Notes: a model not told the origin generated them from the letters alone. Counted from the first letter of the stretch, positions 50,710 to 63,354 are shown. The stretch is DNA of 64,000 nt from Minisyncoccota bacterium (GCA_028695415.1 JAQVIY010000001.1:113067-177066), one strand, 5' to 3'. Made by a program: numbers and translations.

Positions 50710-50756
50710 TGAATCTGCTATAGTTCACTGAGTCAAATCCTATGGAAGGGATACCG

Positions 50757-51011
50757 ATGGGCAAGGAAACCAAATCTGACCTGATGGACACGCTGGAGAG
50801 GGCTGCTCGAGCACGAAAAAAGTATCTCGAAGAACATCCCGAGTTCCTTAAGAAGTTGGAGCGAGGAGAAAATGCTTCTGCCCGAATCGCTACGGAACAT
50901 CCAGAAACCGTTGCGGGGGCTCAAGAAAGCGAGAGAGGGAGACGCCCTGCCCTCAAGGGAGCGCGAGAGCACGACCTTCACCAACGCAAGATTCTCGGAG
51001 ATGATTTCTGA
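50757..51011 (+). CDS. hypothetical small charged protein
   Basis: ORF with GGAAGG upstream; no recognisable motif. Confidence 0.3.
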   Translation: MGKETKSDLMDTLERAARARKKYLEEHPEFLKKLERGENASARIATEHPETVAGAQESERGRRPALKGAREHDLHQRKILGDDF

Positions 51012-51012
51012 A

Positions 51013-51040
51013 AGGCCGGCACTCACCGGTCTTTTTTCTT
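51013..51040. terminator. terminator-like hairpin with T-tract between converging genes
   Basis: ggccggcactcaccggtc followed by tttttt. Confidence 0.5.
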
Positions 51041-51046
51041 TTTAGA

Positions 51047-51460
51047 TTACGGGCACGGCACCTTCGGGGCATTCAATATTTCAAGTACCTTGTCGGCAAT
51101 TCCTTCAAGTTTCCAATCTGACTTCACCATAAAGAACGAGGGGCCGAGCTCGGCGATATTTCGTATTTGAACGTCTTCATCTGCGCTTAGATTGGTGAGG
51201 ATGACGACCGGGACGCACTTACCCCAATCATTCTTCCCGCGCAGTTCTTTGAGCATCTCCCAGCCGTCCATCATCGGCATAAGGATATCGAGCAGAATAA
51301 TATCAGGAAGTTCTTTGAGCGCCACCATAAGACCGCTCATGCCGTTTTTAGCCTCTATAACAGTCAATCCTGCCTCAACGAGCGAGGAGCGGAGTGCCTT
51401 GAGCATGGCCTCATCATCTTCAACCACAAGAACTTTATTTTTTGTCATGTCCGTAGCCAT
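51047..51460 (-). CDS. single-domain response regulator (CheY-like receiver)
   Basis: VLVVEDDEAM...DIILLDILMP with conserved Asp and Lys positions. Start chosen at MATDM, just downstream of the kinase stop. Confidence 0.85.
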   Translation of the reverse strand: MATDMTKNKVLVVEDDEAMLKALRSSLVEAGLTVIEAKNGMSGLMVALKELPDIILLDILMPMMDGWEMLKELRGKNDWGKCVPVVILTNLSADEDVQIRNIAELGPSFFMVKSDWKLEGIADKVLEILNAPKVPCP

Positions 51461-51467
51461 GGTGACA

Positions 51468-53816
51468 TTATACCACCGGTCGCGCCTCTTTCGGGAGCAA
51501 GAGATAGAACGTTGTCCCCTCCCCTTCTTTAGAAACAAACCAGATGATGCCTCCTATGATATCCGCCATTATCTTCGACATGTAGAGCCCAAGCCCGTTG
51601 CCGTTGGGATCCTGCATTTTTGCATTATCGGCGCGATAGAACTTAGAGAATACCTTCTCCTTGACGCTCTCTGGCACCCCGATACCGGAGTCGTGGACAG
51701 CGACGAGCACCGAATCCTGTGCGGCTATCTTTCCTGCAACGGACTCTCCGGCGATGACATTCTCAAGGGAGATAACGACTTCCCCGCCGTCTTTTGAATA
51801 TTTAAGGGCATTCGAGACGAAATTCTGTACGATGATACGGGCGAGATCCGCGTCGGTGAGCACACGAGAGAGAGAGTTCTGATACTTCTCGACAACACGC
51901 AACTTCTTTCGCTCCGCCTGCAGTTGAAGTTCCGCCTGTATCGATCGCGAGATGGCGATAAGATCGGTCGGAGCAGTGTTTTTCGTCTGGGTGCCGGTCT
52001 CGAGGCGCAAGACATGCAAGAACGAGTTGATGATTTCATTCATCTGCCGTCCGGCCAGAGCGATCTCATTGAAATATTCTTTCTGTTTAGCGGTCATCTT
52101 ACCCGCATCGCCGCCAAGAAGCATTTCTGAATACCAATTGATGGCAGTAAGCGGCGTGCGCAGCTGGTGCGACGCGAGCGAGATAAATTCGGTCTTAGCG
52201 GTATCTATCTCTTTCTCTTTCGTGATATCCCGCTCGATGCCGACGAAGAATACTATCTTGTCATTAGAATCGAGTACCGGGGAAATATTGATGAGCGCCG
52301 TATAGAGCTGCCCGTTCTTCCTTTTATTCTGCATCTCCCCGATGAAGGTCTCCTTCCGGTCCTTGATGGTATGCCAGAGATTCTCGTAATAGTCTTTAGG
52401 CATCGGCGACTTCCAGAGCACTCCGGATTTCTTACCCAGCGCCTCTTCCGGCTTGTAGCCCGTTATCTTTTCGACCGCCGCATTGGCATAGATAACCGTT
52501 CCCTCAGGGTCCGTGATGATGATCTGATCCGAGGCATTATCGATCGCCAATTTGAATTTTTTCAGATCATTCGCGAGACGCTCGGCCTTCATTTTCTCCT
52601 CTTCAAGCTTCTCTTCTTCGTCTTTAAGATCCGCAGCGATATTAAATGCAGCCTGTTCGCTCTCTTTTGCTTCTTCGGTCTTCTCAGCAAGTTCTTTTGT
52701 CCGTTCACTCACCTTTTGTTCAAGCGTGATGCGAGATTCCTGCAGTTTGCTGATCATGGCATTAAAGGTGGTTGCCAGAATACCGACATCGTCTTTCGAC
52801 GTGATGACGATGCTTTGGTTCAGATCCCCTTGTGCGATTTTATTTGCAAATGCCGTGAGCGCATGTACCGGACCCGTTATGGACCTCGACATGGTGACCG
52901 CGACGGCGATAATCAGCGCGCTGATGATGGAAACAATAAGCAGGAACAATTCCTGCAAATGCCGTATCGGCGTATATGCTTCGGTCTGATCTATTTTGAC
53001 GACGATCCCCCATCCGGTGCTCTCGATATATCGCGTCGCCGCAAAGACTTTTATGCCGCGATAATCGACTGCGTTCAATAGAAGCGCTTCCTCTCCGCGA
53101 ACGGCGCGTATCGTCGGCAGCATTTGACTTGCTGGCACAACTCGCGAGAGTGCGGCAGAAGGGTCAAAACGAGTCGGGGTCAAGAAAAGCGCATTTCCAT
53201 CGCTTGTCTCAGTGACAACCAATGTCTCTCCTGTTTTCCCAAATCCCGCAAAATCATGAGAAATATTGACGATATCGTCAGCATCGGTTACCACCACCGC
53301 GACCCCCTCAGTTTTGTCGGCAATAAGCGGGCCGGCAAGATATTGTGAGACGGTGCCATCTGCATCTTTCCCCAACACCGATTCATCGTTAGCGTGCAGG
53401 CCTCGCTTAAAATAGGCCTCGGTTTGTATATCCGTACCAATAAGAGCCTTATCGCTTGAGGCGACAACGATACCTGCGGTTGTCGCTAAAAATAATTTTC
53501 GTATCCCGACCGCTCTCCCCGGCGCTTCTACCAACTCCTGTAATTTTTCCTTATTCAACAACGTCGGTTGTGCATTATACCCTTGCAGGGCGCCGACAAA
53601 CGACGAACTCGTGGTGAATAAGTTCAGAATATCCAATTTGTTGTTCAACGTATCTTCAAGCCGATTCTTTTGCGTTTCAGCGAGACTGTCGAGGGTGGTG
53701 TAGGTCTTGGCGTTCACCTGTTCTTGTGATGCCAGAAATGCAAGCGTCCCGCCTACCAACCACGGTATGAGAGCGACTTGCATGACGATGATAACGATTT
53801 TTGTATTCAGGCTCAT
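51468..53816 (-). CDS. sensor histidine kinase (TM, extracytoplasmic Cache-like domain, HAMP, PAS, HisKA, HATPase)
   Basis: H-box LASHQLRTPL. N, G1 and G2 boxes (DSGIGVP, GNGLGL). PAS region (PEGTVIYANAAVEKITGYKPEEALG). Start ATG overlaps the upstream gene's stop (ATGA). Confidence 0.9.
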   Translation of the reverse strand: MSLNTKIVIIVMQVALIPWLVGGTLAFLASQEQVNAKTYTTLDSLAETQKNRLEDTLNNKLDILNLFTTSSSFVGALQGYNAQPTLLNKEKLQELVEAPGRAVGIRKLFLATTAGIVVASSDKALIGTDIQTEAYFKRGLHANDESVLGKDADGTVSQYLAGPLIADKTEGVAVVVTDADDIVNISHDFAGFGKTGETLVVTETSDGNALFLTPTRFDPSAALSRVVPASQMLPTIRAVRGEEALLLNAVDYRGIKVFAATRYIESTGWGIVVKIDQTEAYTPIRHLQELFLLIVSIISALIIAVAVTMSRSITGPVHALTAFANKIAQGDLNQSIVITSKDDVGILATTFNAMISKLQESRITLEQKVSERTKELAEKTEEAKESEQAAFNIAADLKDEEEKLEEEKMKAERLANDLKKFKLAIDNASDQIIITDPEGTVIYANAAVEKITGYKPEEALGKKSGVLWKSPMPKDYYENLWHTIKDRKETFIGEMQNKRKNGQLYTALINISPVLDSNDKIVFFVGIERDITKEKEIDTAKTEFISLASHQLRTPLTAINWYSEMLLGGDAGKMTAKQKEYFNEIALAGRQMNEIINSFLHVLRLETGTQTKNTAPTDLIAISRSIQAELQLQAERKKLRVVEKYQNSLSRVLTDADLARIIVQNFVSNALKYSKDGGEVVISLENVIAGESVAGKIAAQDSVLVAVHDSGIGVPESVKEKVFSKFYRADNAKMQDPNGNGLGLYMSKIMADIIGGIIWFVSKEGEGTTFYLLLPKEARPVV

Positions 53817-54472
53817 GGGTTCTTTTCTGCACGGTTCACAAAGGCGAGTCCGATTCCAAGGAGGATGAAACAAAGTGCTGTATTGAACGCCATGGGCACA
53901 CTCGCGTTATTGAATTCGAAATACAGGGCGGGAACGTTGAACGCATACCCGATCATAGCAACACAGGCAATAGCAATGATGGCAAAGCTCATAATAGTAA
54001 TATATTGTTTACGAAAAACGGTCGCGAAATTTGCAATAACGGTGACTACCGAAAAAATCATGAAATTCAGCAGTGCGGGGATGGAAGGCAGCCCGCTGAC
54101 CGGTTCAAGATTGGTAATCGTCAATATATCTGGCTGTCGCACAAATAATGTTTCTATACCCGTTGGTATGCCAAGCAGTCTGCCCGCCAACATCGAACTT
54201 GCCACAATAGCGAGGGTCAATGCGATACCGGGCAGAAATACACCCGCGACCTCGTCTTCGTCTTGAACGACGCGAGATATAAGAAAGAGACCGCTAGCAC
54301 TAAGGAGGAACAGAAAAGCCGTTACGAACTTCATGTTGATGCTCACGTGTGCAGACACAATGCGCGTGAACGCATCAATATCAAAAACCCAACCCGCCAT
54401 AACAATGATCGAATATATTCCAATCACTACCGCCAGAAGATGTGCAATTCGGTGACGAGCAAAACGGATCAT
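53813..54472 (-). CDS. polytopic membrane protein (about 6 TM helices), possible stand-alone membrane sensor module
   Basis: Hydrophobic helices throughout. Translationally coupled to the downstream kinase. Confidence 0.55.
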   Translation of the reverse strand: MIRFARHRIAHLLAVVIGIYSIIVMAGWVFDIDAFTRIVSAHVSINMKFVTAFLFLLSASGLFLISRVVQDEDEVAGVFLPGIALTLAIVASSMLAGRLLGIPTGIETLFVRQPDILTITNLEPVSGLPSIPALLNFMIFSVVTVIANFATVFRKQYITIMSFAIIAIACVAMIGYAFNVPALYFEFNNASVPMAFNTALCFILLGIGLAFVNRAEKNP

Positions 54473-54474
54473 AG

Positions 54475-56553
54475 CTACTCTGAAGCGAGCTTCGCCTTCA
54501 GTTTCTCTATCTCATTCTTCAGCTCAATCATCTTGAGCTCTCTCCCGACCATGAGCTTGTTGATGTTCTCGATCTCCTCGAGATGTTCTTGACTCTTCTG
54601 TTCCGCTTCTTTCTGTTCGGTGACATCCTGCACCATCGAGAGTACGCCGATTACCGCCCCGTCCGGCTGCTTTAAGGGCGTATTGACCCAGTCGCAGATG
54701 ATGGTGCGGCCGTCCTTAGTCGTATTCTCGTTCACGCTGCGCGCCGACTCATCGCCGGCGAGCAGCCGACCCCAGACATCATTCACTTGGGGCTGCGCGC
54801 TCTTCGGCACGATAAGATCGTACGGATGCTTTCCGATTGCCTCCTCGGACGTAAAGCCGAATATCTTTTCTGCCGCGGGATTCCAGGTAACCACAAGGAA
54901 ATTCTTGTCCCAGAGAATATGGCCGATAGGCATGCGATCCACCTCGAAGCGCAACCGTTCTTCGTTCTTCTTTAAGGCTTCTCCAGCCACCTTGCGCTCG
55001 GTGATGTCCTGAGCTGTACCGCGGAGACCAATCACCTTGCCTTCCTCATTACGGATCGTCTCGCTCCGCGCCGTAATCCAGCGGACCGAATCGGTCGGAC
55101 GAGCGATTTCTAGATCGATTTCGTACGGCTCGCCCGTTTCTGTATTTTTCTTTACTGCCGCGTCGAGCAGTGCCGCACTCTCTGGCGTGTATATCTTGAG
55201 GTGTTCTTCATAGTTCGGAGGATGTTGCGTAGGATCAAGGCCGAAGAGGTGATAATACTCCTTCGACCATGTGATAGTGTCTGTCGCGATATCCCAGCTC
55301 CAGTTGCCGATCCGCCCCACGCGCTGAGCCTCTCTGAGCTCTCGTTCACTTTCGCTCAATTTCTTCTCGGCGCTCTTACGCTCCGTCACATCGATGCCGT
55401 AGGAGATGGTCCCAATGACAGCTCCATCGTCATGCAGGTCGGAGTTTCGCCATTCGATTATCCGCTCTTCGCCGCTCTTCGTGAGAATAGGGTTTTCGAA
55501 GTCCCCGATGATGGACTCCCTCTTCTTCTTGAATTCCTCGAACACCTCCCACACCTTCGGGTATCGGTTGCGTGGCGCAATGATCTCGAACCAATTCCGG
55601 CCAAGCACCTCGTCCTTCCGGTACCCAGTCACTTTCTCAGCGACTTCATTGAACGCCGTGACCCTGCCTTCAAGGTCAAGACATACGATCATCGCGTTCG
55701 AGAAACGGATGAGCTCTTCGGAATAGTGGATCGCTTTCTTATACTCTGTCTCAATGGTCTGCCGATCGAGCAGGTTCTTAAGCAATCGGTCCACTTCTTC
55801 CGAAGTTCCTTTCCCGGCCATCAGGAACTCGTCGACAGGAACGTAGTAAAAATTACGGCAGACGGTATTGCCGACCACGACGATCGGGTGCGTGTGAATG
55901 ACGTCGAGAAGGATTGCCGGCGAGAAACGCTGACGATTGTACTGACAGATGGCGAGCGCATCGTTCGCCGGGAAAAAACGGTTGAGTTTCGCCTCATACT
56001 CGATGAGGCGGTCAGTGCCCTTCTCACCGCCGAGCATCCAGGTCATCTCGCCAGTTGCCCGAAGCGCAGAATATCCCTCCTTTTTCGCCGCATTTGTCGA
56101 GTCGGTAAGGAACCGGATCATTTCATCCGGATCGAAATAGCCGTTACGCAAATACGCTTCCCGCTTCGTGATCACGGCGAGCGAACCTTTCTTGAGCGCC
56201 GCATCCACATCAATGCCGCCCGCCCGCATGGAGGCAAGAACCTCATCGACGGTATTGTCATCCGCGATGTACACGCATTTTTCTCCGCGCTCAAGCCCGA
56301 TGCGCATGAACGGAACGACCGCCGCAAACTGTTCTTCCTTATTGGCATAAATGAGGCACAAATGATCGTGCATCGAAACGTCCTCAATGGCGCGTACGAG
56401 ACTTGTCGCGCCCGATCCGGCCGGATTTTTTTCGTCATTCGCAATGGTGAGGGACATGAGGATAGGAGGAGACATTTTTCCGTCTCTATTTCCTATTGTA
56501 CGCCAACGCGGTGCGCGAAAACACCCCGCAAAGCGGAGCGTGTGCACAAGCAC
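54475..56553 (-). CDS. cytoplasmic sensor protein: N-terminal MEDS-like domain, three to four PAS/PAC domains and a C-terminal coiled coil; no kinase domain
   Basis: HLCLIYANKEEQFAAVVPFMRIGLERGEKCVYI resembles the MEDS domain. Repeated PAS segments (VTGYRKDEVLGRNWFEI; EKIFGFTSEEAIGKHPYDLI). Start is 10 nt after the RR stop. Confidence 0.7.
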   Translation of the reverse strand: MLVHTLRFAGCFRAPRWRTIGNRDGKMSPPILMSLTIANDEKNPAGSGATSLVRAIEDVSMHDHLCLIYANKEEQFAAVVPFMRIGLERGEKCVYIADDNTVDEVLASMRAGGIDVDAALKKGSLAVITKREAYLRNGYFDPDEMIRFLTDSTNAAKKEGYSALRATGEMTWMLGGEKGTDRLIEYEAKLNRFFPANDALAICQYNRQRFSPAILLDVIHTHPIVVVGNTVCRNFYYVPVDEFLMAGKGTSEEVDRLLKNLLDRQTIETEYKKAIHYSEELIRFSNAMIVCLDLEGRVTAFNEVAEKVTGYRKDEVLGRNWFEIIAPRNRYPKVWEVFEEFKKKRESIIGDFENPILTKSGEERIIEWRNSDLHDDGAVIGTISYGIDVTERKSAEKKLSESERELREAQRVGRIGNWSWDIATDTITWSKEYYHLFGLDPTQHPPNYEEHLKIYTPESAALLDAAVKKNTETGEPYEIDLEIARPTDSVRWITARSETIRNEEGKVIGLRGTAQDITERKVAGEALKKNEERLRFEVDRMPIGHILWDKNFLVVTWNPAAEKIFGFTSEEAIGKHPYDLIVPKSAQPQVNDVWGRLLAGDESARSVNENTTKDGRTIICDWVNTPLKQPDGAVIGVLSMVQDVTEQKEAEQKSQEHLEEIENINKLMVGRELKMIELKNEIEKLKAKLASE

Positions 56554-56562
56554 GAGGTATCG

Positions 56563-56934
56563 TCACTTCGAGTGTATGAGAACGTTTTTTATCTTTTCAA
56601 CTATCTCGTTGATGGGGTGTTCGGACTTTACATAATAATCGGCGGCACCGAGAGACAGGGCGCGCTTGATATCGCTGTCTTCGCCGAGATTCGAGACGAC
56701 GACCACGGGTATCATCTTCAGCATTTGGTCAGACTTCAGTGACTCAAGCACCTCGAAGCCATTCCTCTTCGGTAGAAGGAGGTCGAGCACGATAGCGTCT
56801 GGATTAGTATCCTTCGCTAGAGTGAGCGCGGCATCGCCGTCGTTGGCAACAGCAACATCATAGCCGGATTTTTCAAATTTTTCTTGCAAGACTTTTGAAA
56901 GCACCTCTTCGTCTTCAATGACTAAAATTTTCAT
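56563..56934 (-). CDS. single-domain response regulator (CheY-like receiver)
   Basis: MKILVIEDEEV...DAIVLDLLLPKRNG with conserved Asp and Lys. Confidence 0.88.
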   Translation of the reverse strand: MKILVIEDEEVLSKVLQEKFEKSGYDVAVANDGDAALTLAKDTNPDAIVLDLLLPKRNGFEVLESLKSDQMLKMIPVVVVSNLGEDSDIKRALSLGAADYYVKSEHPINEIVEKIKNVLIHSK

Positions 56935-56959
56935 GATGGCTTGATTAAAATGATTGTTT

Positions 56960-58414
56960 TTAGGATTCTATTTCCTCGATATTCTGCACCACATACTGCT
57001 TATTCTTCTCGATTGTCTCCGCTATTTTCTTCAGCGCAGACTTCATGTCTCGTGCCTCTAGGTCGGTTATAGCATCGCCATTATACTTCACTAAGAGGCT
57101 GTCTACCTCTTTTTTTATTATACCAAATGCCGTCTGGATGTCGCGCTGGGCAACCACGATCCGGCGGCGGCGTTGTTCTCGCTCCTTTTTGCCGATATAC
57201 CAGCCGAACGCGCCTCCTGCGAGGAGCGCAAGAATAAGGCTTATAAAGAATGAGGTTCGAGTGATGCCGACACCCGCGATAGTGATGAGCGGTATCTCAG
57301 AAATATCGAGTATTACTCGGCTCTCGGCTGTATTTCCCGCCCTATCAACCGCTTGTACGACGAGGCTATGTTTCCCCGCCTGCTGCGGAGGAAGCGTGTA
57401 TTTCGCGAGCATCGTGGTAGTCGAGAGCGTCCCGTCGAGCATAATCTTGTAATCGAGAATACCGGAAGGCTGATCATTGGTTCCGAACGCGATGGTCGGA
57501 GCGACATTTGCGGTCGTAAGTCCGTCGGGCGATGTCACGGTAAAACTAAGCGGCGGCGCGCTATCAATGCCGATGCGGTAATGCACGGTAGGGCCCCAGC
57601 CGACAGAATCTTTGAAGCGCACGTGCAGGTACCATATGCCGTCGGTAAGCGGACTGAACGTCTTATTATTGAAAAGCCCTTCAGAGGCAGTTGGGTCAAA
57701 CGTCGGCTGTTGATTGACCGCCGTAGCCACGTCGGTCACCTCTCGCGGCAAATCCCACTGAACGATGAACTTGGTAACGTCCGCATACCATGCGGACGAG
57801 TCGGGATAGAGCGGCACCGTGAGCACTGGTTTCGTCGGAAGACCCGTTGCGGTTACCGCCGTTCGAGTTATCTGAGATGGTGCGATAACTGCGGCGGTTT
57901 GCGAAGCGCTGCTCGTAAGCTGGAGACCGTTCATCGCCGTCAAAACGTTCGTACCGCTCCCATCACTTGCCGTCACCGCACCATCAGAGAAAATGATGCT
58001 GACCGCACCAGTACCCTTTACTTTGAAGGCTATACGGAGCACTTCGAGCGCCTTGCCGGATATGCCGCTTTGGCTCCCGCCGATAAAGGTCACCTGCCCC
58101 GCGTCATTTGAGAATGACGGCCCTTGAAGCCAGAAATCAAATGCCGACGTGCTTTTATCAAGACTGGTCACCTGCACGGTGTCTTTAGGGAACGTAATCG
58201 TCGCTTGCGCGGCGTTCACACCGACATCGGTGCTATCTATCTTTACATCTACCGTGAACGTATTCCCGACCGAGAACGTCTCTTTATCGGCAGTGAGGTT
58301 ATATGATGCGGCGCGCGCGGAGTACGGCGCGCCAAATACGAAGAAGAGCATCGCTATGCTTGAAAGCACTACGGCACGCTTCGTTACTGTCATTCTTGAA
58401 GTATACACCGTCAT
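56960..58414 (-). CDS. cell-surface anchoring protein: signal peptide, cohesin-like domain, C-terminal TM helix and a cytoplasmic coiled-coil tail
   Basis: The region after the signal peptide (ASYNLTADKETFSVGNTFTVDVKIDS...GQVTFIGGSQSGISGKALEVLRIAFKVKGTGAVSIIF) has the cohesin beta-sandwich pattern. TM helix FFISLILALLAGGAFGWYIG near the C-terminus. Confidence 0.6.
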   Translation of the reverse strand: MTVYTSRMTVTKRAVVLSSIAMLFFVFGAPYSARAASYNLTADKETFSVGNTFTVDVKIDSTDVGVNAAQATITFPKDTVQVTSLDKSTSAFDFWLQGPSFSNDAGQVTFIGGSQSGISGKALEVLRIAFKVKGTGAVSIIFSDGAVTASDGSGTNVLTAMNGLQLTSSASQTAAVIAPSQITRTAVTATGLPTKPVLTVPLYPDSSAWYADVTKFIVQWDLPREVTDVATAVNQQPTFDPTASEGLFNNKTFSPLTDGIWYLHVRFKDSVGWGPTVHYRIGIDSAPPLSFTVTSPDGLTTANVAPTIAFGTNDQPSGILDYKIMLDGTLSTTTMLAKYTLPPQQAGKHSLVVQAVDRAGNTAESRVILDISEIPLITIAGVGITRTSFFISLILALLAGGAFGWYIGKKEREQRRRRIVVAQRDIQTAFGIIKKEVDSLLVKYNGDAITDLEARDMKSALKKIAETIEKNKQYVVQNIEEIES

Positions 58415-58422
58415 ACCTGCAA

Positions 58423-61400
58423 TTATTTCTTCAAGGTGCGGACAAAGATGCTCAAGTCAGTGACATCGACTTTCCCGTCGCCGTTCAGATCATCGAGAAG
58501 TTGTGTCGCCTTGTTCGAGGAACTCCAGCGGGAAAGGAAGATGCTCCAGTCCTGCACATTTATCACGCCGTCCTGATTGAAGTCGGTCTGAGGAGTGAAG
58601 AGTGTCGTCACGGTGAACACTTTCTGAGGCGCAAAGTCGCTCGCTACACCGGAGGGCGAGGTCTGGCGAACCCGCACGGTGTGGCTGCCGAGCGAGAGAG
58701 AGCCGGTCGGATAAAGGATCTTATACGCGCCATCGGCGTCTGCCTTGGCCGTGACGGAGACTGCTTTGCCGTCAACCTGGGCGCTCACAGTGTATCCCGG
58801 CACCGCCATACCAATAAACCCGACGGTATCATTTTGTCGAACGGTCGGCCGAACGAGACCGAGGGTCGGCGAGAGCGCGGTATCAAGCGCAAGGAGCGCA
58901 TTGCTGCTCGTGTAATTAGCATTGAACGCCTTTATCTGGGTCGTGCGCCCGAGATCGTCAACACCGACAATGCCATAGGAACCAATCCCGACCGTAATTC
59001 CTTTCAGGAGGATTGAGAACGAACCGTTTGCTCGCGCCGTCGCTTGTCCTGCGAGAGTCGCTCCCGCCGGTGACACGGCGAGCACCTGCACACTCGCGTT
59101 CGGGAACGCTCGTCCGGAGATCTGTACGCCGGTTATCGCCGGTACCGGTTCAAGACCCGTACCGCCGCCGCTCACGCCCGTCACCGGTACAACCGGTATA
59201 GCTGAGAACAGCAGGCTCTGTGTCGAGGAAACATCGAGGCCGGTGGACTGCGTATCGGAGAGCGAGAGCGTTACCGTCTCAGCGACAGTATCGGAAAGCG
59301 AGATTGTCCCGACGCCGTTTGTCATCGTCACGAGCCCGGCCCCCGTAGCAGAGCCGTCCGTGCGAAGTGTCACGCCCGATACGATTGTCGTGTCGACATT
59401 TCCGTTCTCGTCTTGCGCTTCAACAGTTACGATAGCGGGTGTCCCTACTTGCACCGATGCGGGAGGAAGGATGACGAGCCGCGTCGCGACTATCGGTATC
59501 GCACTCACGGTCACCGAATCAACTGCGTCTTGAACGCCCGCACTGTCAGGAGCTGATGCGTTGTCGGACGCGGTGATGAGCCACGTGCCGGGGGTCTCGT
59601 CATAATACCAGAACGTACCCGAGGAACTGCCGTCGTTGATGGTCGCAAAGGTCGTCGGAGCTCCACCTACCGCGACCGCATAAAAGGCGGTCGTCGTTCC
59701 GGTTGAAGACGAATAAAAGTAGGCGAGCGTTACCCCCGTCGTCACGAGGTTGTTGTATTGGTCTTCGCGAGTCACGGTGTATCCGAGCCGCGTGCCTGCG
59801 GTCATATTACCCGGGTCGTTGAGGAGGAACTTCGCGACAGTTGCCGGCTGTACGGCGATAGCGTCGCTTGCATCAGCGATACCGCTTGCGTCGGGCGCTG
59901 TCGCGTTGTCAGAAACCGTAATGAACCAATTCCCTGCTTTTTCGTCGTATGCCCAGAAAGCTCCTGAAGAATTTCCATTCGAGATAACGAGCGAGGTGAT
60001 AGCGCTCCCTCCTGACGCGGAATCATAGAACTTTTTATTCACGCCGGTCGAAGAGCTGTAGAGATACGCATCCGTTGCACCCGTCGTCACCAGATTTCCG
60101 TATTGATCTTTACGGGTGACCGTATATCCGATGCGCACGCCCGCCGCCGAATCCCCCGGGTTATCGAGCGAGAACTGTGCGACGGCCCCCGGAGCAAAGG
60201 TGAGCGGCTGTGTCGAAGAGACATCGAGACCGGTACCTTGCGAATCGGCAAGAGAGAGTGTTCGCGTTCCCGCATGCGTATCGGAGAGCGGGAGCGTACC
60301 GACGCCGTTTACGATATTCACGAGTCCGGTGCCAGTTACGGTACCCGTCGCGGAAAGCGTCACATCGCTCTCATACGAGGTGTCGACATTACCGCTTCCA
60401 TCCTGCGCCTGCACCGTGACCGTTATCGGTGCGTCTACCGTCCCGTTTACAGGCGGGAGGATAACGAACCGCGTCGCAACTATCGGGGCCGCGTTTACTG
60501 CAACAGCGTCAGAAGCATCTGCGACACCCGTTGCCCCATCGGCAGTCGGCGTTGCATCAGAGACGGTCACGTTCCAGGTTCCTAGATTCGGATCCTCGTA
60601 CCAGAACGACGCGGACGATGCGCTATCGGGTATCGCAAGCGAGGTGATGCTGTTTCCGAGAGAAGCGGCATCATAAAACGCCGGGGAGCTCGTCCCGACG
60701 GAATTGCTGTAGAGATACACGTTTGTGCTGCCGCTTGTCGCGAGATTATTGAACTGGTCCTTGCGCGTCACGGTGTACCCAATCCGCGTGTCGACAGTCA
60801 TATCGCCAGGGTCATTGAGGGAGAGTGCAGCCGTCGGTCCCGCGACGACTCCAAGCGTTTGTACGGCATCATTGACGCCTGTAGTGCCGTCAGGCGCAGA
60901 CGCGTTGTCCGAAGCGGTAATACTCCAGCTCCCTGGAAGAGTGTCGTAATACCAGACACTCGCGCTCGACTGACCGGCAACTATCTGTACTGAAGATATG
61001 ACCGCACCGCCTGTCGCGGCGTCATAGAACTTCTTACTGCTTCCTGTCGAAGAACTATAGAGATATACCGTGCTGGTCGCAGACGAGCTTACATTGCCGT
61101 ACTGATCCTTGCGCGTCACGGTGTACGCCGCTCGTTCTCCCGCAATCAGCGTCGAGGGATTAGAAAGAGAGAACTGTGCAAGAACTCCTCCTGTGAAAGC
61201 GAGCGACTGTGTCGAAGATACATCGAGTCCGGTACTCTCTGAATCAGAGAGTGAGAGCGCCGCCGTCTCAGCAACCGTGTCTGAGATGGCGAGCGTGCCG
61301 ACGCCGTTTATGATATCTACGAGTCCGCCGCCGGTGGCAGAGCCGGTCGTCGCGAGCGTCACGTCGCTTTGATAATTAGTATCGACGCTGGTATCGGGTT

Positions 61401-63117
61401 TCTGCGCCTGCACCGTGACCGTTATCGGTGCGTCTACGGTCCCGCTTGTAGGAGGCAGGATGACGAACTTCGTCGCAACCGGCATCACCGTGACCGCATC
61501 AGTTGCGTCAGTGATGCCGGTAGCCCCGTCAGCGACCGGTGTCGCATCGGAAGCGGTGATGGTATATGAGCCCGGCGTCTCGTCGTAGTACCAGACGTTC
61601 GCCGTCGAATGTCCCGAACCTATCGCGATAGAGGTGATGACGGAACCTGCGAGAGAATCGTCATAAAACTTCTGCGTCCCTCCCGTCGAAGTGGTATAGA
61701 GGTAGACGGTCGTCGTCCCTGTGCCGACGGCATTCCCATACGAATCAAACCGGCTCACGGTATAGCCGAGTCGCGTTTTCGCGTACATGTCACCTGGGTT
61801 AGTAAGGGTAAGCGAAGCAACGGCTCCCGTGGCGACTACGAACGACTGGTCGACATTTGAGGCAGCAGTATAGTTGCTGTCCCCCGCTTGTGAGGCACGA
61901 ATGGTACAGGTGCCGATTGAGACAAGGTGCACGGTTGCCGTACTCACCGTACAGACACCGGCCGTAAGCGATGAGAATGAGACCGCGAGGCCGGAAGATG
62001 CGGTCGCGCTTACCGCGAAGTCAGCCTCGCCGAGCGTCTTGTTCGGGAGCGGGTTGAAGGTGATCGTCTGACTCGCAGGATTGATCGTGAATGTGCCGGC
62101 AGAAGCGGCAGTCAAGCTCGTATAGCTTGTCGTATCCGTCGGGACGAAGTTTGCAGTAACCGCATAGGAGCCGCCATTCGTTTGTGTTGCAGCACCACCC
62201 GTAAGCACAGTGTTCGCTGCTCCCGGAACGGATCCGGTAACCGTAGCCGCCTGAGCGGATCCGGTATAGGTGACGGGCGAATTGGTAACCGAGAGTGTGG
62301 GGGTCGCGCGCGTATCGTTCGTCACGCTGAGCTTGCCGGTTGTCGCCGCAAAGTACGTATTATTTTTATAGGTTGCCGTAGAGCTGGTGGAGCCCCAAGT
62401 GCCGTTGATTCTGCCGAGCCCGCCGAGCGTGAGATTAGCGACCGTGAGAGTAGTCCCCGCACCGATACTCGCTGTCGGTGTCCCGGTAGACGCGACACTG
62501 AGCGTGCCTCCGATTGAAATGCCCGACGCCATGGACTTTGTTCCGCTCCCGGAAAGCGTCACGTTGTTGTAAGTGAATACACCAAGCGTTTGATTGCCGG
62601 ACGCTGAATAGCTTGCGGTGCTGCCTGAGTTATACGCCCAATTGGCGATGCCCGTGGTCGCGGCAGTTGTGCTGAAATTGATAACGCCTCCATTATTGAC
62701 CTGCACGGTAGGACTATTCCCTGCGCCATTCTTGTTAAGACCATTGCTAACGGTTATTCGGAATGTTCCATTGACTACCATTCCGGGGTTCAGATTGTTT
62801 TTGATACCGAAGACCTTTCCTCCGTCCGTGAGTGTTCCGCCGCTGTTTATGGTGACAACGCCGGACTGGTTGAGGTTCGCACTCAGGCTCACCGTATCGC
62901 CAGACGCGATGATAACTGTGTCACTTGTCGCCGGCACGACACCGCCCGCCCATGTAGAGCCAACACTCCAGATACCACCACCGGTCCCGTTGCTTGTTCT
63001 TGTCGCGGCGAATGCCGTATTGGCTCCACTCAAAACGAACAACACTGCACTCACTATCACAACACGTCGGCAGATGGTACTCATAAAGTGAATATAAAGA
63101 TTAGTATCTCTATACAA
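58423..63117 (-). CDS. giant secreted surface protein (about 1560 aa): signal peptide, beta-strand-rich N-terminal region, Ig-like/MBG-like domains, two interleaved tandem repeat families, and a C-terminal type-I dockerin
   Basis: C-terminal DFNQDGVINVQD...DLNGDGKVDVTD is a two-loop calcium-binding dockerin. N-terminal signal peptide. The start may be the internal ATG 33 nt downstream. Confidence 0.85.
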   Translation of the reverse strand: MYRDTNLYIHFMSTICRRVVIVSAVLFVLSGANTAFAATRTSNGTGGGIWSVGSTWAGGVVPATSDTVIIASGDTVSLSANLNQSGVVTINSGGTLTDGGKVFGIKNNLNPGMVVNGTFRITVSNGLNKNGAGNSPTVQVNNGGVINFSTTAATTGIANWAYNSGSTASYSASGNQTLGVFTYNNVTLSGSGTKSMASGISIGGTLSVASTGTPTASIGAGTTLTVANLTLGGLGRINGTWGSTSSTATYKNNTYFAATTGKLSVTNDTRATPTLSVTNSPVTYTGSAQAATVTGSVPGAANTVLTGGAATQTNGGSYAVTANFVPTDTTSYTSLTAASAGTFTINPASQTITFNPLPNKTLGEADFAVSATASSGLAVSFSSLTAGVCTVSTATVHLVSIGTCTIRASQAGDSNYTAASNVDQSFVVATGAVASLTLTNPGDMYAKTRLGYTVSRFDSYGNAVGTGTTTVYLYTTSTGGTQKFYDDSLAGSVITSIAIGSGHSTANVWYYDETPGSYTITASDATPVADGATGITDATDAVTVMPVATKFVILPPTSGTVDAPITVTVQAQKPDTSVDTNYQSDVTLATTGSATGGGLVDIINGVGTLAISDTVAETAALSLSDSESTGLDVSSTQSLAFTGGVLAQFSLSNPSTLIAGERAAYTVTRKDQYGNVSSSATSTVYLYSSSTGSSKKFYDAATGGAVISSVQIVAGQSSASVWYYDTLPGSWSITASDNASAPDGTTGVNDAVQTLGVVAGPTAALSLNDPGDMTVDTRIGYTVTRKDQFNNLATSGSTNVYLYSNSVGTSSPAFYDAASLGNSITSLAIPDSASSASFWYEDPNLGTWNVTVSDATPTADGATGVADASDAVAVNAAPIVATRFVILPPVNGTVDAPITVTVQAQDGSGNVDTSYESDVTLSATGTVTGTGLVNIVNGVGTLPLSDTHAGTRTLSLADSQGTGLDVSSTQPLTFAPGAVAQFSLDNPGDSAAGVRIGYTVTRKDQYGNLVTTGATDAYLYSSSTGVNKKFYDSASGGSAITSLVISNGNSSGAFWAYDEKAGNWFITVSDNATAPDASGIADASDAIAVQPATVAKFLLNDPGNMTAGTRLGYTVTREDQYNNLVTTGVTLAYFYSSSTGTTTAFYAVAVGGAPTTFATINDGSSSGTFWYYDETPGTWLITASDNASAPDSAGVQDAVDSVTVSAIPIVATRLVILPPASVQVGTPAIVTVEAQDENGNVDTTIVSGVTLRTDGSATGAGLVTMTNGVGTISLSDTVAETVTLSLSDTQSTGLDVSSTQSLLFSAIPVVPVTGVSGGGTGLEPVPAITGVQISGRAFPNASVQVLAVSPAGATLAGQATARANGSFSILLKGITVGIGSYGIVGVDDLGRTTQIKAFNANYTSSNALLALDTALSPTLGLVRPTVRQNDTVGFIGMAVPGYTVSAQVDGKAVSVTAKADADGAYKILYPTGSLSLGSHTVRVRQTSPSGVASDFAPQKVFTVTTLFTPQTDFNQDGVINVQDWSIFLSRWSSSNKATQLLDDLNGDGKVDVTDLSIFVRTLKK
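59370..61830 (-). repeat. interleaved tandem coding repeats inside the giant protein gene (about 115-aa unit x5 and about 95-aa unit x3)
   Basis: Unit A recurs as ..YTVTRKDQYGN...VYLYSSSTG..KKFYD..GG..I.S..I..G.SS..W.YDE.PG.W.ITASDNA.APD. Unit B as VATRFVILPP..GTVDAPITVTVQAQ...GNVDT....DVTL...G..TG.GLV.I.NGVGT..LSDT.A.T..LSL.DS..TGLDVSSTQ.L.F. Boundaries approximate. Confidence 0.7.
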
Positions 63118-63233: not shown

Positions 63234-63305
63234 GGCCTCATCGTCTAACGGCTAGGACAGATCCCTCTCACGGATCAAATCGGGGTTCGATTCCCCGTGA
63301 GGTCA
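63234..63305 (+). tRNA. tRNA-Glu (anticodon CTC); CCA not encoded
   Basis: Hand-folded. Acceptor ggcctca/tgaggtc (one G-U pair), D-arm gtc-taacggctag-gac, anticodon stem gatcc/ggatc with loop ctCTCac, T-arm cgggg-ttcgatt-ccccg. Confidence 0.75.
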
Positions 63306-63354
63306 CAAGCGGCCAGCCGAGAAGCGTAAGCTTCTCGGCTGTTGCCGTCTTGTA

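Follow-up and report, generated by a model that had tools for sequence, protein, structure and literature searches.

A candidate cassette of Candidate Phyla Radiation bacteria that may couple a cohesin-dockerin surface pair to a two-component pathway

Background

Several described sensor histidine kinases have separate membrane proteins as partners (PMC5854430, 10.1101/2020.02.28.969956), and in CbrX-CbrA an upstream open reading frame (ORF) is translationally coupled with the kinase gene (PMC6591292). Here we describe a block of seven genes in which such a kinase and membrane protein share a strand with two genes for cell-surface proteins. The block lies in a 64-kb stretch of the chromosome of an ultra-small bacterium of the Candidate Phyla Radiation (CPR)/Patescibacteria (Minisyncoccota bacterium, GCA_028695415.1 JAQVIY010000001.1:113067-177066), which was analysed as a whole and is called the window. 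Over about 12 kb of the minus strand (51047-63084) it encodes, from 5' to 3', a giant dockerin-bearing protein, a cohesin membrane anchor, a response regulator that consists of a single receiver (REC) domain (RR1), a kinase-less sensor with one MEDS and three PAS domains (the MEDS-PAS protein), a membrane protein with six transmembrane (TM) helices (the 6-TM protein), a sensor histidine kinase, and a second REC-only response regulator (RR2). Like the membrane partners in UhpC-UhpB, BceAB-BceS, SaeQ-SaeS and SpdC-WalK, the 6-TM protein is a separate polypeptide encoded beside the kinase and would be expected to join it in a complex and modulate its activity. Unlike the partner in systems of the UhpC-UhpB type, it is neither a transporter nor an Abi protein, and elsewhere it occurs as the N-terminal domain of the same kind of kinase, which argues for a split gene rather than a recruited accessory.

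Other parts of the block likewise have described counterparts, from which they differ in specific ways. MASE1-9, HisKA_7TM, 5TMR-LYT and MHYT are, like the 6-TM module, polytopic N-terminal modules of kinases and GGDEF/EAL proteins in many phyla, whereas the 6-TM protein matches none of their models (in single-model, not profile-profile, searches), appears to be built from three similar hairpins and is often a stand-alone gene. CheY, DivK, CpdR, LovR and Spo0F share with RR1 and RR2 the REC-only architecture and an intact Asp pocket; the named NCBIfam receivers, in contrast, match the two regulators far below cut-off (e.g. DVU0259/DivK-like, 65 against 160), and the conserved genomic partner of RR1 is a cohesin membrane anchor, whereas none is described for those five proteins in the literature searched. 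In cellulosome loci (RsgI/SigI; XydS/R, PMC3572039), as in the block, genes for a dockerin protein and a cohesin anchor stand side by side near a signalling system, but the block has no glycoside hydrolase or carbohydrate-binding module (CBM), a single cohesin, no sigma/anti-sigma pair and no DNA-binding regulator. Finally, DcmR, RsbA-type anti-sigma factors and archaeal MEDS kinases contain, like the window protein, a clear MEDS domain, which has been described as iKaiC, an inactivated KaiC-like domain for sensing or interaction (PMC5847659); in the window, unlike in these proteins, it is followed by three PAS domains and a distinctive C-terminal motif.

The catalytic parts of the block all belong to known families (HisKA kinase, CheY-like receivers, MEDS, PAS, dCache, cohesin and dockerin). 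As far as our searches reach, it differs from the systems described in the literature searched in the CPR-wide coupling of cohesin/dockerin genes to REC-only regulators, in the 6-TM family and in the C-terminal motif. A search for literature on CPR bacteria, cohesin/dockerin proteins and response regulators found the linkage described nowhere; subscription journals were little covered in it, and earlier descriptions are possible. A life attached to host cells is assumed for CPR/Patescibacteria, and the way in which they regulate their activities with so few transcription factors is an open question, for which the block offers a concrete candidate of regulated attachment. Our reading, to which we give a probability of roughly one half, is that the block is a cassette typical of its CPR lineage, in which a pair of surface attachment proteins is coupled to two-component signalling without a DNA-binding output.

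Results and discussion

Conserved linkage of the surface pair and RR1

Orthologs of the surface pair (42-77% identity), together with an RR1 ortholog directly upstream of sensor genes, were found in the related loci L004, L007, L008 and L012, although their 6-TM proteins share no more than 38-46% identity with that of the window. When metagenomes were scanned with an anchor profile, 80 loci with 40-71% identity were retrieved. The giant gene (S1564-like) lies directly upstream of the anchor gene in 73 of them, and a REC ORF, usually REC-only, starts within 250 nucleotides (nt) downstream of it in 54 of the 68 loci with at least 500 nt of downstream sequence. Seven further loci have the order kinase-REC1-giant-anchor, and three carry kinase-REC2-REC1 immediately after the anchor. 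After dereplication at 80% identity, a REC gene directly follows the anchor in 44 of 57 clusters, and an RR1-type REC gene adjoins the surface pair in some arrangement in 53 of the 57. The kinase is far less constant, being found within 9 kb of the pair in only 23 of the 41 loci that extend at least 4 kb downstream (about 18 of 41 have no kinase nearby); RR1 is kept without a nearby kinase in, for example, L113-L116, on contigs of up to 893 kb, and the kinases that do occur near the pair vary in type (cytoplasmic PAS kinases, HAMP kinases, dCache type).

Because the kinase varies in type and is often absent nearby, the giant dockerin protein, the cohesin anchor and the RR1-type receiver form the tightest unit, a conserved CPR core, and the kinase complex of the window is one of several inputs. 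The arrangement is not a matter of chance, since it recurs in many diverged genomes, and the linkage, shared by dozens of related genomes, suggests that signals control attachment at the cell surface through protein contacts and not through a DNA-binding regulator. The original prediction had proposed looking for a gene order conserved next to cohesin/dockerin genes; this link is kept, both in the four orthologous loci and in the 53 clusters, while the five sensory genes do not travel as a fixed unit.

The cohesin-dockerin surface pair

The giant protein has a signal peptide, a G8 domain (23.3 bits, cut-off 22.9), repeated beta-sandwich modules and a C-terminal dockerin, in which two DxNxDGxhxxxD calcium loops, DFNQDGVINVQD and DLNGDGKVDVTD, are readable in the translation; its orthologs in L004, L007, L008 and L012 are 47-72% identical. 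The window copy of the anchor falls below the Pfam cohesin cut-off, and sequence searches of the PDB with the anchor and with its profile returned nothing meaningful. When its AlphaFold2 (AF2) model was compared with the PDB by Foldseek, however, the top matches were cohesin modules (2w1n, E=7e-12; 2vo8, TM-score 0.82; 4dh2 and 6kgf, 0.72); its NCBI name is 'cohesin domain-containing protein', and PF00963 is found in many of at least 290 homolog clusters. By the dockerin loops and the modelled cohesin fold, the two proteins are a predicted cohesin-dockerin pair. The TM helix of the anchor is followed by a positively charged cluster, KKEREQRRRR, and by a cytoplasmic tail whose sequence is conserved among orthologs. 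TM helix and tail are present in 75 of 75 complete anchor homologs, with a tail length of 61-160 amino acids (aa) and a median of 74.

A cellulosome was considered and rejected because no carbohydrate-active enzyme domain is present: neither the giant protein nor the anchor contains a glycoside hydrolase or CBM domain, there is one cohesin only, and no multi-cohesin scaffoldin is found. As the host is a CPR bacterium, an adhesin with its anchor is more likely than a polysaccharide-degrading machine.

Two types of REC-only regulators

Domain scans, here and below, were made with Pfam and NCBIfam at the cut-offs of the models. The original prediction held that neither regulator has a DNA-binding output, and Response_reg is indeed the sole confident Pfam domain in both RR1 and RR2; no output domain was found in either, NCBIfam matches being confined to the receiver part, and the other Pfam match of RR1, PDE8A_N, is sub-threshold (17.5 bits against a cut-off of 29.6). 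In an alignment with E. coli CheY, residues D13, D57 and K109 (CheY numbering) are invariant in both regulators, and position 87 is occupied by Ser in RR1 and by Thr in RR2. Being REC-only with an intact Asp pocket, they would therefore give their output through protein contacts or phosphotransfer.

The two regulators are distinct paralog types. RR1 is 53-83% identical to its orthologs after the cohesin gene and is the most conserved protein of the block (in L008, 83% against 38-77% for the others), and RR2 is 72-80% identical to genes that follow the kinase in L002, L004 and L012. RR2-type genes follow kinases and RR1-type genes follow anchors; outside CPR, the receivers that come after a 6-TM and kinase pair are again REC-only, though they show no particular affinity to the RR2 type. 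In L003, as in loci ordered kinase-REC1-giant, the gene right behind a kinase is of the RR1 type, and RR1 is therefore a plausible direct substrate of the kinase.

Two REC-only genes with one kinase could also mean that one receiver acts as a phosphate sink or feedback element, with the output passing through the other receiver or the kinase complex and the surface pair co-transcribed without being the target. Sink receivers are well documented (CheY paralogs in Sinorhizobium, LovR), and the separate placing of the two types, RR2 always after the kinase and RR1 after the anchor, does indicate that their roles differ. We nevertheless consider this explanation quite improbable, as the adjacency of RR1 and the surface pair in 53 of 57 dereplicated loci, whose anchors are 40-77% identical, outlasts relocation of the kinase or loss of a nearby one and is hard to explain without a functional tie.

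In some loci an extra gene stands between the cohesin anchor and RR1 (L004:3420-5636, L012:6486-8780 and also L093-L096). In L004 and L012 it encodes a protein of 738-764 aa (42% mutual identity), in which an RR1-like receiver is joined to about 600 aa of a highly charged, repetitive coiled coil. No counterpart of this protein was found in the window, where RR1 and RR2 match it in the REC part only; the same pathway may use it as an alternative effector.

A sensor kinase split between two genes

The kinase combines two TM helices (aa 5-29 and 286-313), which flank a dCache_1 domain (PF02743, aa 40-273), with HAMP, PAS, HisKA and HATPase_c domains. The dCache_1 match is marginal (46.3 bits, cut-off 45), and orthologs carry the domain in precomputed Pfam lists, which give no scores. 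The HisKA domain (PF00512, aa 540-608; 52.7 bits, cut-off 26.9) contains a canonical H-box, SHQLRTPL, readable in the translation, and the HATPase_c match (PF02518, 78.9 bits) covers positions 2-110 of 111. By its domains, the protein is classed as a predicted HisKA-type sensor histidine kinase. These results, with those for RR1, RR2 and the MEDS-PAS protein, uphold all of the MEDS, PAS, Cache, HAMP, kinase and receiver assignments that had been made from the sequence alone.

The predicted six helices of the 6-TM protein were recovered both by hydropathy and in its AF2 model (predicted local distance difference test, pLDDT, 82.5). A word-indexed search found only 11 relatives, none of which exceeds the threshold of the MASE1-9, HisKA_7TM, MHYT or 5TMR-LYT models (one of the 11 has a weak HisKA_7TM match, E=9.6e-4), and a PDB sequence search with their profile gave nothing meaningful. 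Against 1.84 billion cluster representatives, the same profile matched 8320 proteins at E<=1e-3, of which 190 reached E<=1e-30. Among the best 149 of the 8320, 126 are stand-alone proteins of about 210 aa, and in the others the module precedes HAMP, dCache, PAS, HisKA-HATPase and sometimes REC domains. One of them, P0044 (6TM-dCache-HAMP-PAS-HisKA-HATPase-REC), corresponds to the window's 6-TM and kinase genes in one chain, and further single-chain proteins of the type 6TM-dCache-HAMP-(PAS)-HisKA-HATPase are P0049, P0076, P0095, L016 and L025. Since such fusions exist elsewhere, the 6-TM protein is best read, from these comparisons, as the split-off N-terminal part of a sensor kinase, so that the two genes would together encode one sensor kinase.

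A scan of 6-TM loci with one genome per GTDB species agrees with this reading. In 18 of the 20 loci with room for one, a dCache sensor or kinase gene stands directly behind a stand-alone 6-TM gene; these stand-alone loci represent CPR, Omnitrophota, Chitinivibrionales, Lentisphaerae, Elusimicrobia, Fibrobacterota, Planctomycetales and a Methanosarcinales metagenome-assembled genome (MAG). Wherever a locus continues beyond the 6-TM gene, a gene for a sensor or a kinase comes next, and in the CPR loci this gene is called with an overlap of 4-11 nt. Fusions in cis include dCache kinases in Syntrophus and Smithellaceae, PAS-GAF-GGDEF-EAL proteins in Marinobacter, GGDEF in an Acidobacteriaceae MAG, CHASE3-PAS-HisKA_3 in Phnomibacter, HWE kinases, and PAS kinases in Flavobacterium. 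The fused forms recur in Marinobacter (L036, L037, L043, L047, L053, L055 and L070) and in Flavobacterium (L046, L054, L063 and L090), and as both genera are cultivable, the module is open to genetics outside CPR. Other architectures were also seen: in P0061, P0108, P0128 and P0157 (about 505 aa) the module is C-terminal, after about 300 aa with a weak PorA (PF11271) match, and in P0016, P0075, P0129 and P0148 it is preceded by other N-terminal regions.

The module carries three conserved motifs, GWxFxIDxLTRI...INMKFxTA, PTGIExLF...GxPS and GYxFxLPxLYY...PMAFNTAL, which suggest a protein of three similar hairpins. When the positive-inside rule is applied to the helices of the AF2 model, the motifs fall in three outward loops and not along a pore, and the hairpins may thus sense or contact something at the outer face. 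A separate polypeptide that is translationally coupled to a kinase might instead be a small channel or transporter that reports flux to the kinase, as in DctA-DcuS, BceAB-BceS and UhpC-UhpB. We give this possibility a low probability: no transporter family matches the protein, the predicted position of the motifs does not follow a pore, and fusion in cis to kinases, GGDEF, GGDEF-EAL, CHASE3 and HWE kinases in many phyla is a hallmark of an input domain. The module occurs in thousands of kinases and cyclic di-GMP enzymes of bacteria and some archaea, and knowledge of its partners would improve their annotation.

Exchangeable kinase-less sensors with a common tail

In the MEDS-PAS protein the MEDS domain is matched over its full length, with an additional weak match to the KaiC ATPase (E=1.9e-4), and no kinase or other output domain was found by Pfam or NCBIfam. 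An RsbA-type anti-sigma factor was rejected, as the protein has no ATPase domain (neither HATPase_c_2 nor a kinase) and matches NF041045 in its MEDS part only, at 59.2 bits against a cut-off of 210. The C-terminus, which the original prediction had described as a coiled coil, is not a generic coil; it bears a specific conserved motif of about 30 aa with the consensus ...E(L/I)E..NKLMVGRELKM(I/M)ELK.EI..LK and the core NKLMVGRELKMIELK (also written NKLMVGRELKMIELK.EI..LK), for which neither Pfam nor NCBIfam has a model and whose letters a full-text literature search found in no paper.

This motif ends all kinase-less PAS/GAF proteins of this kind. A profile of it matched about 35 distinct proteins in the fetched loci, always 1-24 residues from the C-terminus; it terminates every kinase-less sensor found in related loci and never occurs in a kinase-bearing protein. 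It also ends dCache-HAMP-(PAS)-tail proteins encoded after a 6-TM gene in Victivallis, Lentisphaerae and a Patescibacteria MAG. In a large protein database the profile gave 775 matches from bacteria and archaea; among the best 120 of these (P0281-P0400) no fusion partner was revealed, because all are proteins or fragments of 46-93 aa. PAS, GAF or HAMP sensors that end in the motif occur in many bacterial phyla and in archaea (ANME-2, Altiarchaeales). The motif marks kinase-less sensors, and knowing its partner would improve the annotation of signalling proteins.

The slot between RR1 and the 6-TM gene was compared in seven CPR relatives and holds from none to three different sensors (PAS or GAF, with MEDS in the window alone). 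It is empty in L007 and contains one PAS protein in L012, a two-PAS protein in L008, a PAS-GAF and a PAS protein in L002, a three-PAS and a PAS protein in L003, a GAF/PAS, a FIST and a two-PAS protein in L004, and a hemerythrin and a multi-PAS protein in L010. No MEDS domain was found in the other related CPR loci examined, and outside the window it was seen only in P0055 (contig L172), a direct fusion of MEDS with the 6-TM module whose gene precedes one for a dCache-HAMP-PAS-tail protein. From these comparisons, the PAS, GAF and MEDS proteins appear to be exchangeable kinase-less sensors with a common tail. The idea that the MEDS-PAS and membrane proteins work with one kinase, put forward in the original prediction, is backed by the fusions P0044, L016, L025 and P0055.

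Proposed mechanism and its alternatives

We propose that, within the membrane, the kinase joins with the 6-TM module into one sensor, which would take extracellular input through the dCache domain and the outward loops of the 6-TM protein. The MEDS-PAS protein would contribute cytoplasmic inputs by docking on this complex, be it with its tail motif, by PAS contacts or both. The kinase would phosphorylate RR2 and RR1; phosphorylated RR1 would act by protein-protein contact, with the cytoplasmic tail of the anchor as its most likely target, so that the signal would set how the dockerin-bearing giant adhesin is displayed, clustered or held, and RR2 may serve as a second branch or phosphate sink. 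A specific contact between RR1 and the anchor tail, as such, we consider unlikely on present evidence. We are similarly doubtful of its possible consequence, an integrin-like link in which phosphorylated RR1 binds the tail and controls docking or presentation of the giant adhesin, or in which the anchor reports adhesin engagement back to the regulator. If true, the block would be a dedicated CPR transmembrane attachment device in which two-component signalling is joined to a cohesin-dockerin joint, with input from a kinase complex that combines the split-off 6-TM module with interchangeable kinase-less sensors, all docking by the same tail.

Several points weigh against the proposed coupling. 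The case for the contact between RR1 and the tail is drawn from adjacency and conservation, the homolog search, which returned short fragments, did not reveal the partner of the tail motif, and the receiver with a long coiled coil in L004 and L012 could be the real effector. The gap of 87 nt after RR1 permits two transcription units. Moreover, a REC-only protein could equally pass phosphate into a phosphorelay or target the transcription apparatus, and the search for Hpt domains and DNA-binding regulators covered the block proteins and the annotated loci. The 6-TM and kinase pair also occurs without a surface pair nearby (L002, L003, L010, L014, L030 and L035), and L010 has pilin-like genes in its place.

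The points on phosphotransfer correspond to a further explanation, in which RR1 and/or RR2 act like Spo0F or bind a sigma factor, an anti-sigma factor or RNA polymerase, and a distant regulator controls the surface genes. Spo0F shows that REC-only proteins can be phosphorelay intermediates, the surface genes lie in the same strand block as a possible regulated target, and in many loci the kinase gene lies apart from the surface pair, so that components acting in trans would be normal. No Hpt, Spo0B-like or DNA-binding domain, on the other hand, was found in the seven proteins or in the annotated related loci, and among the block proteins, to which this test was confined, a His-Asp-His-Asp phosphorelay was rejected for want of an Hpt or Spo0B-like component. 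Indirect control of transcription would also leave unexplained why all 75 homologs keep the conserved anchor tail of about 74 aa and why RR1 persists beside the anchor gene through rearrangements; we regard it as possible if somewhat unlikely.

The pilin-like genes of L010 raise the question whether the CheY-like receivers of the pathway serve to control type IV pili or motility, with the cohesin/dockerin genes as unrelated neighbours. Type IV pili are important in CPR bacteria, and in L010 three prepilin-type (N_methyl) genes lie beside a paralogous set of sensor, kinase and receiver genes. Such pilin genes were seen in one locus, however, against dozens with the surface pair, and the block contains no Pil genes, which makes this explanation very improbable. 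A chemotaxis-type pathway was likewise rejected, as no genes for CheA, CheW or methyl-accepting chemotaxis proteins were found in the block or among the ten neighbouring window genes scanned. The set in L010 (L010:18-8273), which follows the prepilin-type genes, consists of a PAS-tail protein, a dCache kinase, two receivers and a hemerythrin.

Gene organization and surroundings

The features of the block and its borders are listed in Table 1. Seven minus-strand ORFs run uninterrupted over 51047-63117, in agreement with the predicted same-strand block of about 12 kb, and the five sensory genes lie at 51047-56934 in the order given by the original prediction. The same five genes (123, 666, 219, 782 and 137 aa) were called independently on a Logan contig that encodes an identical 6-TM protein, and the database copy of the 6-TM protein comes from a MAG named Candidatus Pacebacteria bacterium. 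Of the five junctions read from the cohesin gene to RR2, four are tight, in line with the packing claimed for the sensory genes: the spacers are 25 nt between the cohesin gene and RR1, 2 nt between the MEDS-PAS and 6-TM genes, and 7 nt between the kinase and RR2, and the start codon of the kinase overlaps the stop of the 6-TM gene in ATGA, as had been noted. The exception is the 87 nt between RR1 and the ATG of the MEDS-PAS gene, the sole real gap of the block, because of which two transcription units are possible.

Table 1. Positions of the block genes, their main domains and bordering features (counted from the first nucleotide of the window)
Feature	Position	Strand	Basis or remark
Giant secreted surface protein, ~1553 aa from ATG at 63084	58423-63084	-	ORF reaches TTG at 63117 (1564 aa)
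Dockerin module of the giant protein	58432-58587	-	Dockerin_1 (PF00404), 24.2 bits vs 22.9
Cohesin anchor, 484 aa: signal peptide, predicted cohesin fold, Ig-like (Big_13), one C-terminal TM helix, cytoplasmic tail	56960-58414	-	AF2, pLDDT 81
Predicted cohesin-fold domain of the anchor (~aa 36-170)	57905-58309	-	AF2 and Foldseek
Cytoplasmic helical tail of the anchor, aa 409-484	56963-57190	-	Ortholog alignment; AQRDIQT..FG.I.K.V..LL....EMK..L.KI....KN.QYVV.N.EEIES
RR1, REC-only response regulator, 123 aa	56563-56934	-	Response_reg, 82.9 bits
MEDS-PAS protein, kinase-less cytoplasmic sensor, 666 aa from ATG: MEDS, three PAS, tail motif	54475-56475	-	Pfam/NCBIfam; ORF extends to GTG at 56553
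MEDS domain (inactivated KaiC-like fold)	55885-56367	-	PF14417, 180.9 bits vs 29.8, full length 1-161
Three PAS domains	54610-55713	-	PAS_4, PAS_3, PAS and PAS_9, three stretches each; TIGR00229, three stretches
C-terminal tail motif, ...EEIENINKLMVGRELKMIELKNEIEKLKAKL	54481-54630	-	Motif profile
6-TM protein, 219 aa	53813-54472	-	Six TM helices; no Pfam/NCBIfam match
Sensor histidine kinase, 782 aa: TM, dCache_1, TM, HAMP, long helical linker, PAS, HisKA, HATPase_c	51468-53816	-	Pfam/NCBIfam
RR2, second REC-only response regulator, 137 aa	51047-51460	-	Response_reg only
GC-rich hairpin	51010-51035		Between the block and the convergent genes
89-aa ORF	50742-51011	+	Between YqeY and the hairpin
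ORF opposite the MEDS-PAS gene, 513 aa	55201-56742	+	Antisense
ORF opposite the kinase gene, 304 aa	52167-53081	+	Antisense
tRNA-Glu(CTC)	63234-63306	+	Divergent from the giant gene

The hairpin downstream of RR2 is probably a two-way terminator that closes the block, and the AT-rich spacer of about 150 nt between the tRNA gene, which was the sole match in an Rfam scan, and the giant gene is likely the promoter region of the block; in a general scan for promoters and terminators, the counts were near chance, with 13 promoter-like sites against 9.6 expected. The remaining genes of the window are ordinary chromosomal ones (MraY, FtsW, MurG, GluRS, M23 peptidase, CorA, CysRS, DnaB, an MFS transporter, a DEAD-box helicase, L21, RmuC, YqeY and two tRNAs), among which no signs of mobile elements were seen. 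The 89-aa ORF, convergent with RR2, matches no family and was predicted as a gene on the Logan contig L001 as well, and the two antisense ORFs look like shadow ORFs of the minus-strand genes. The GC content drops to 0.49 across 52001-54000, over the kinase and 6-TM genes, compared with 0.55-0.58 in the flanks, a mild dip.

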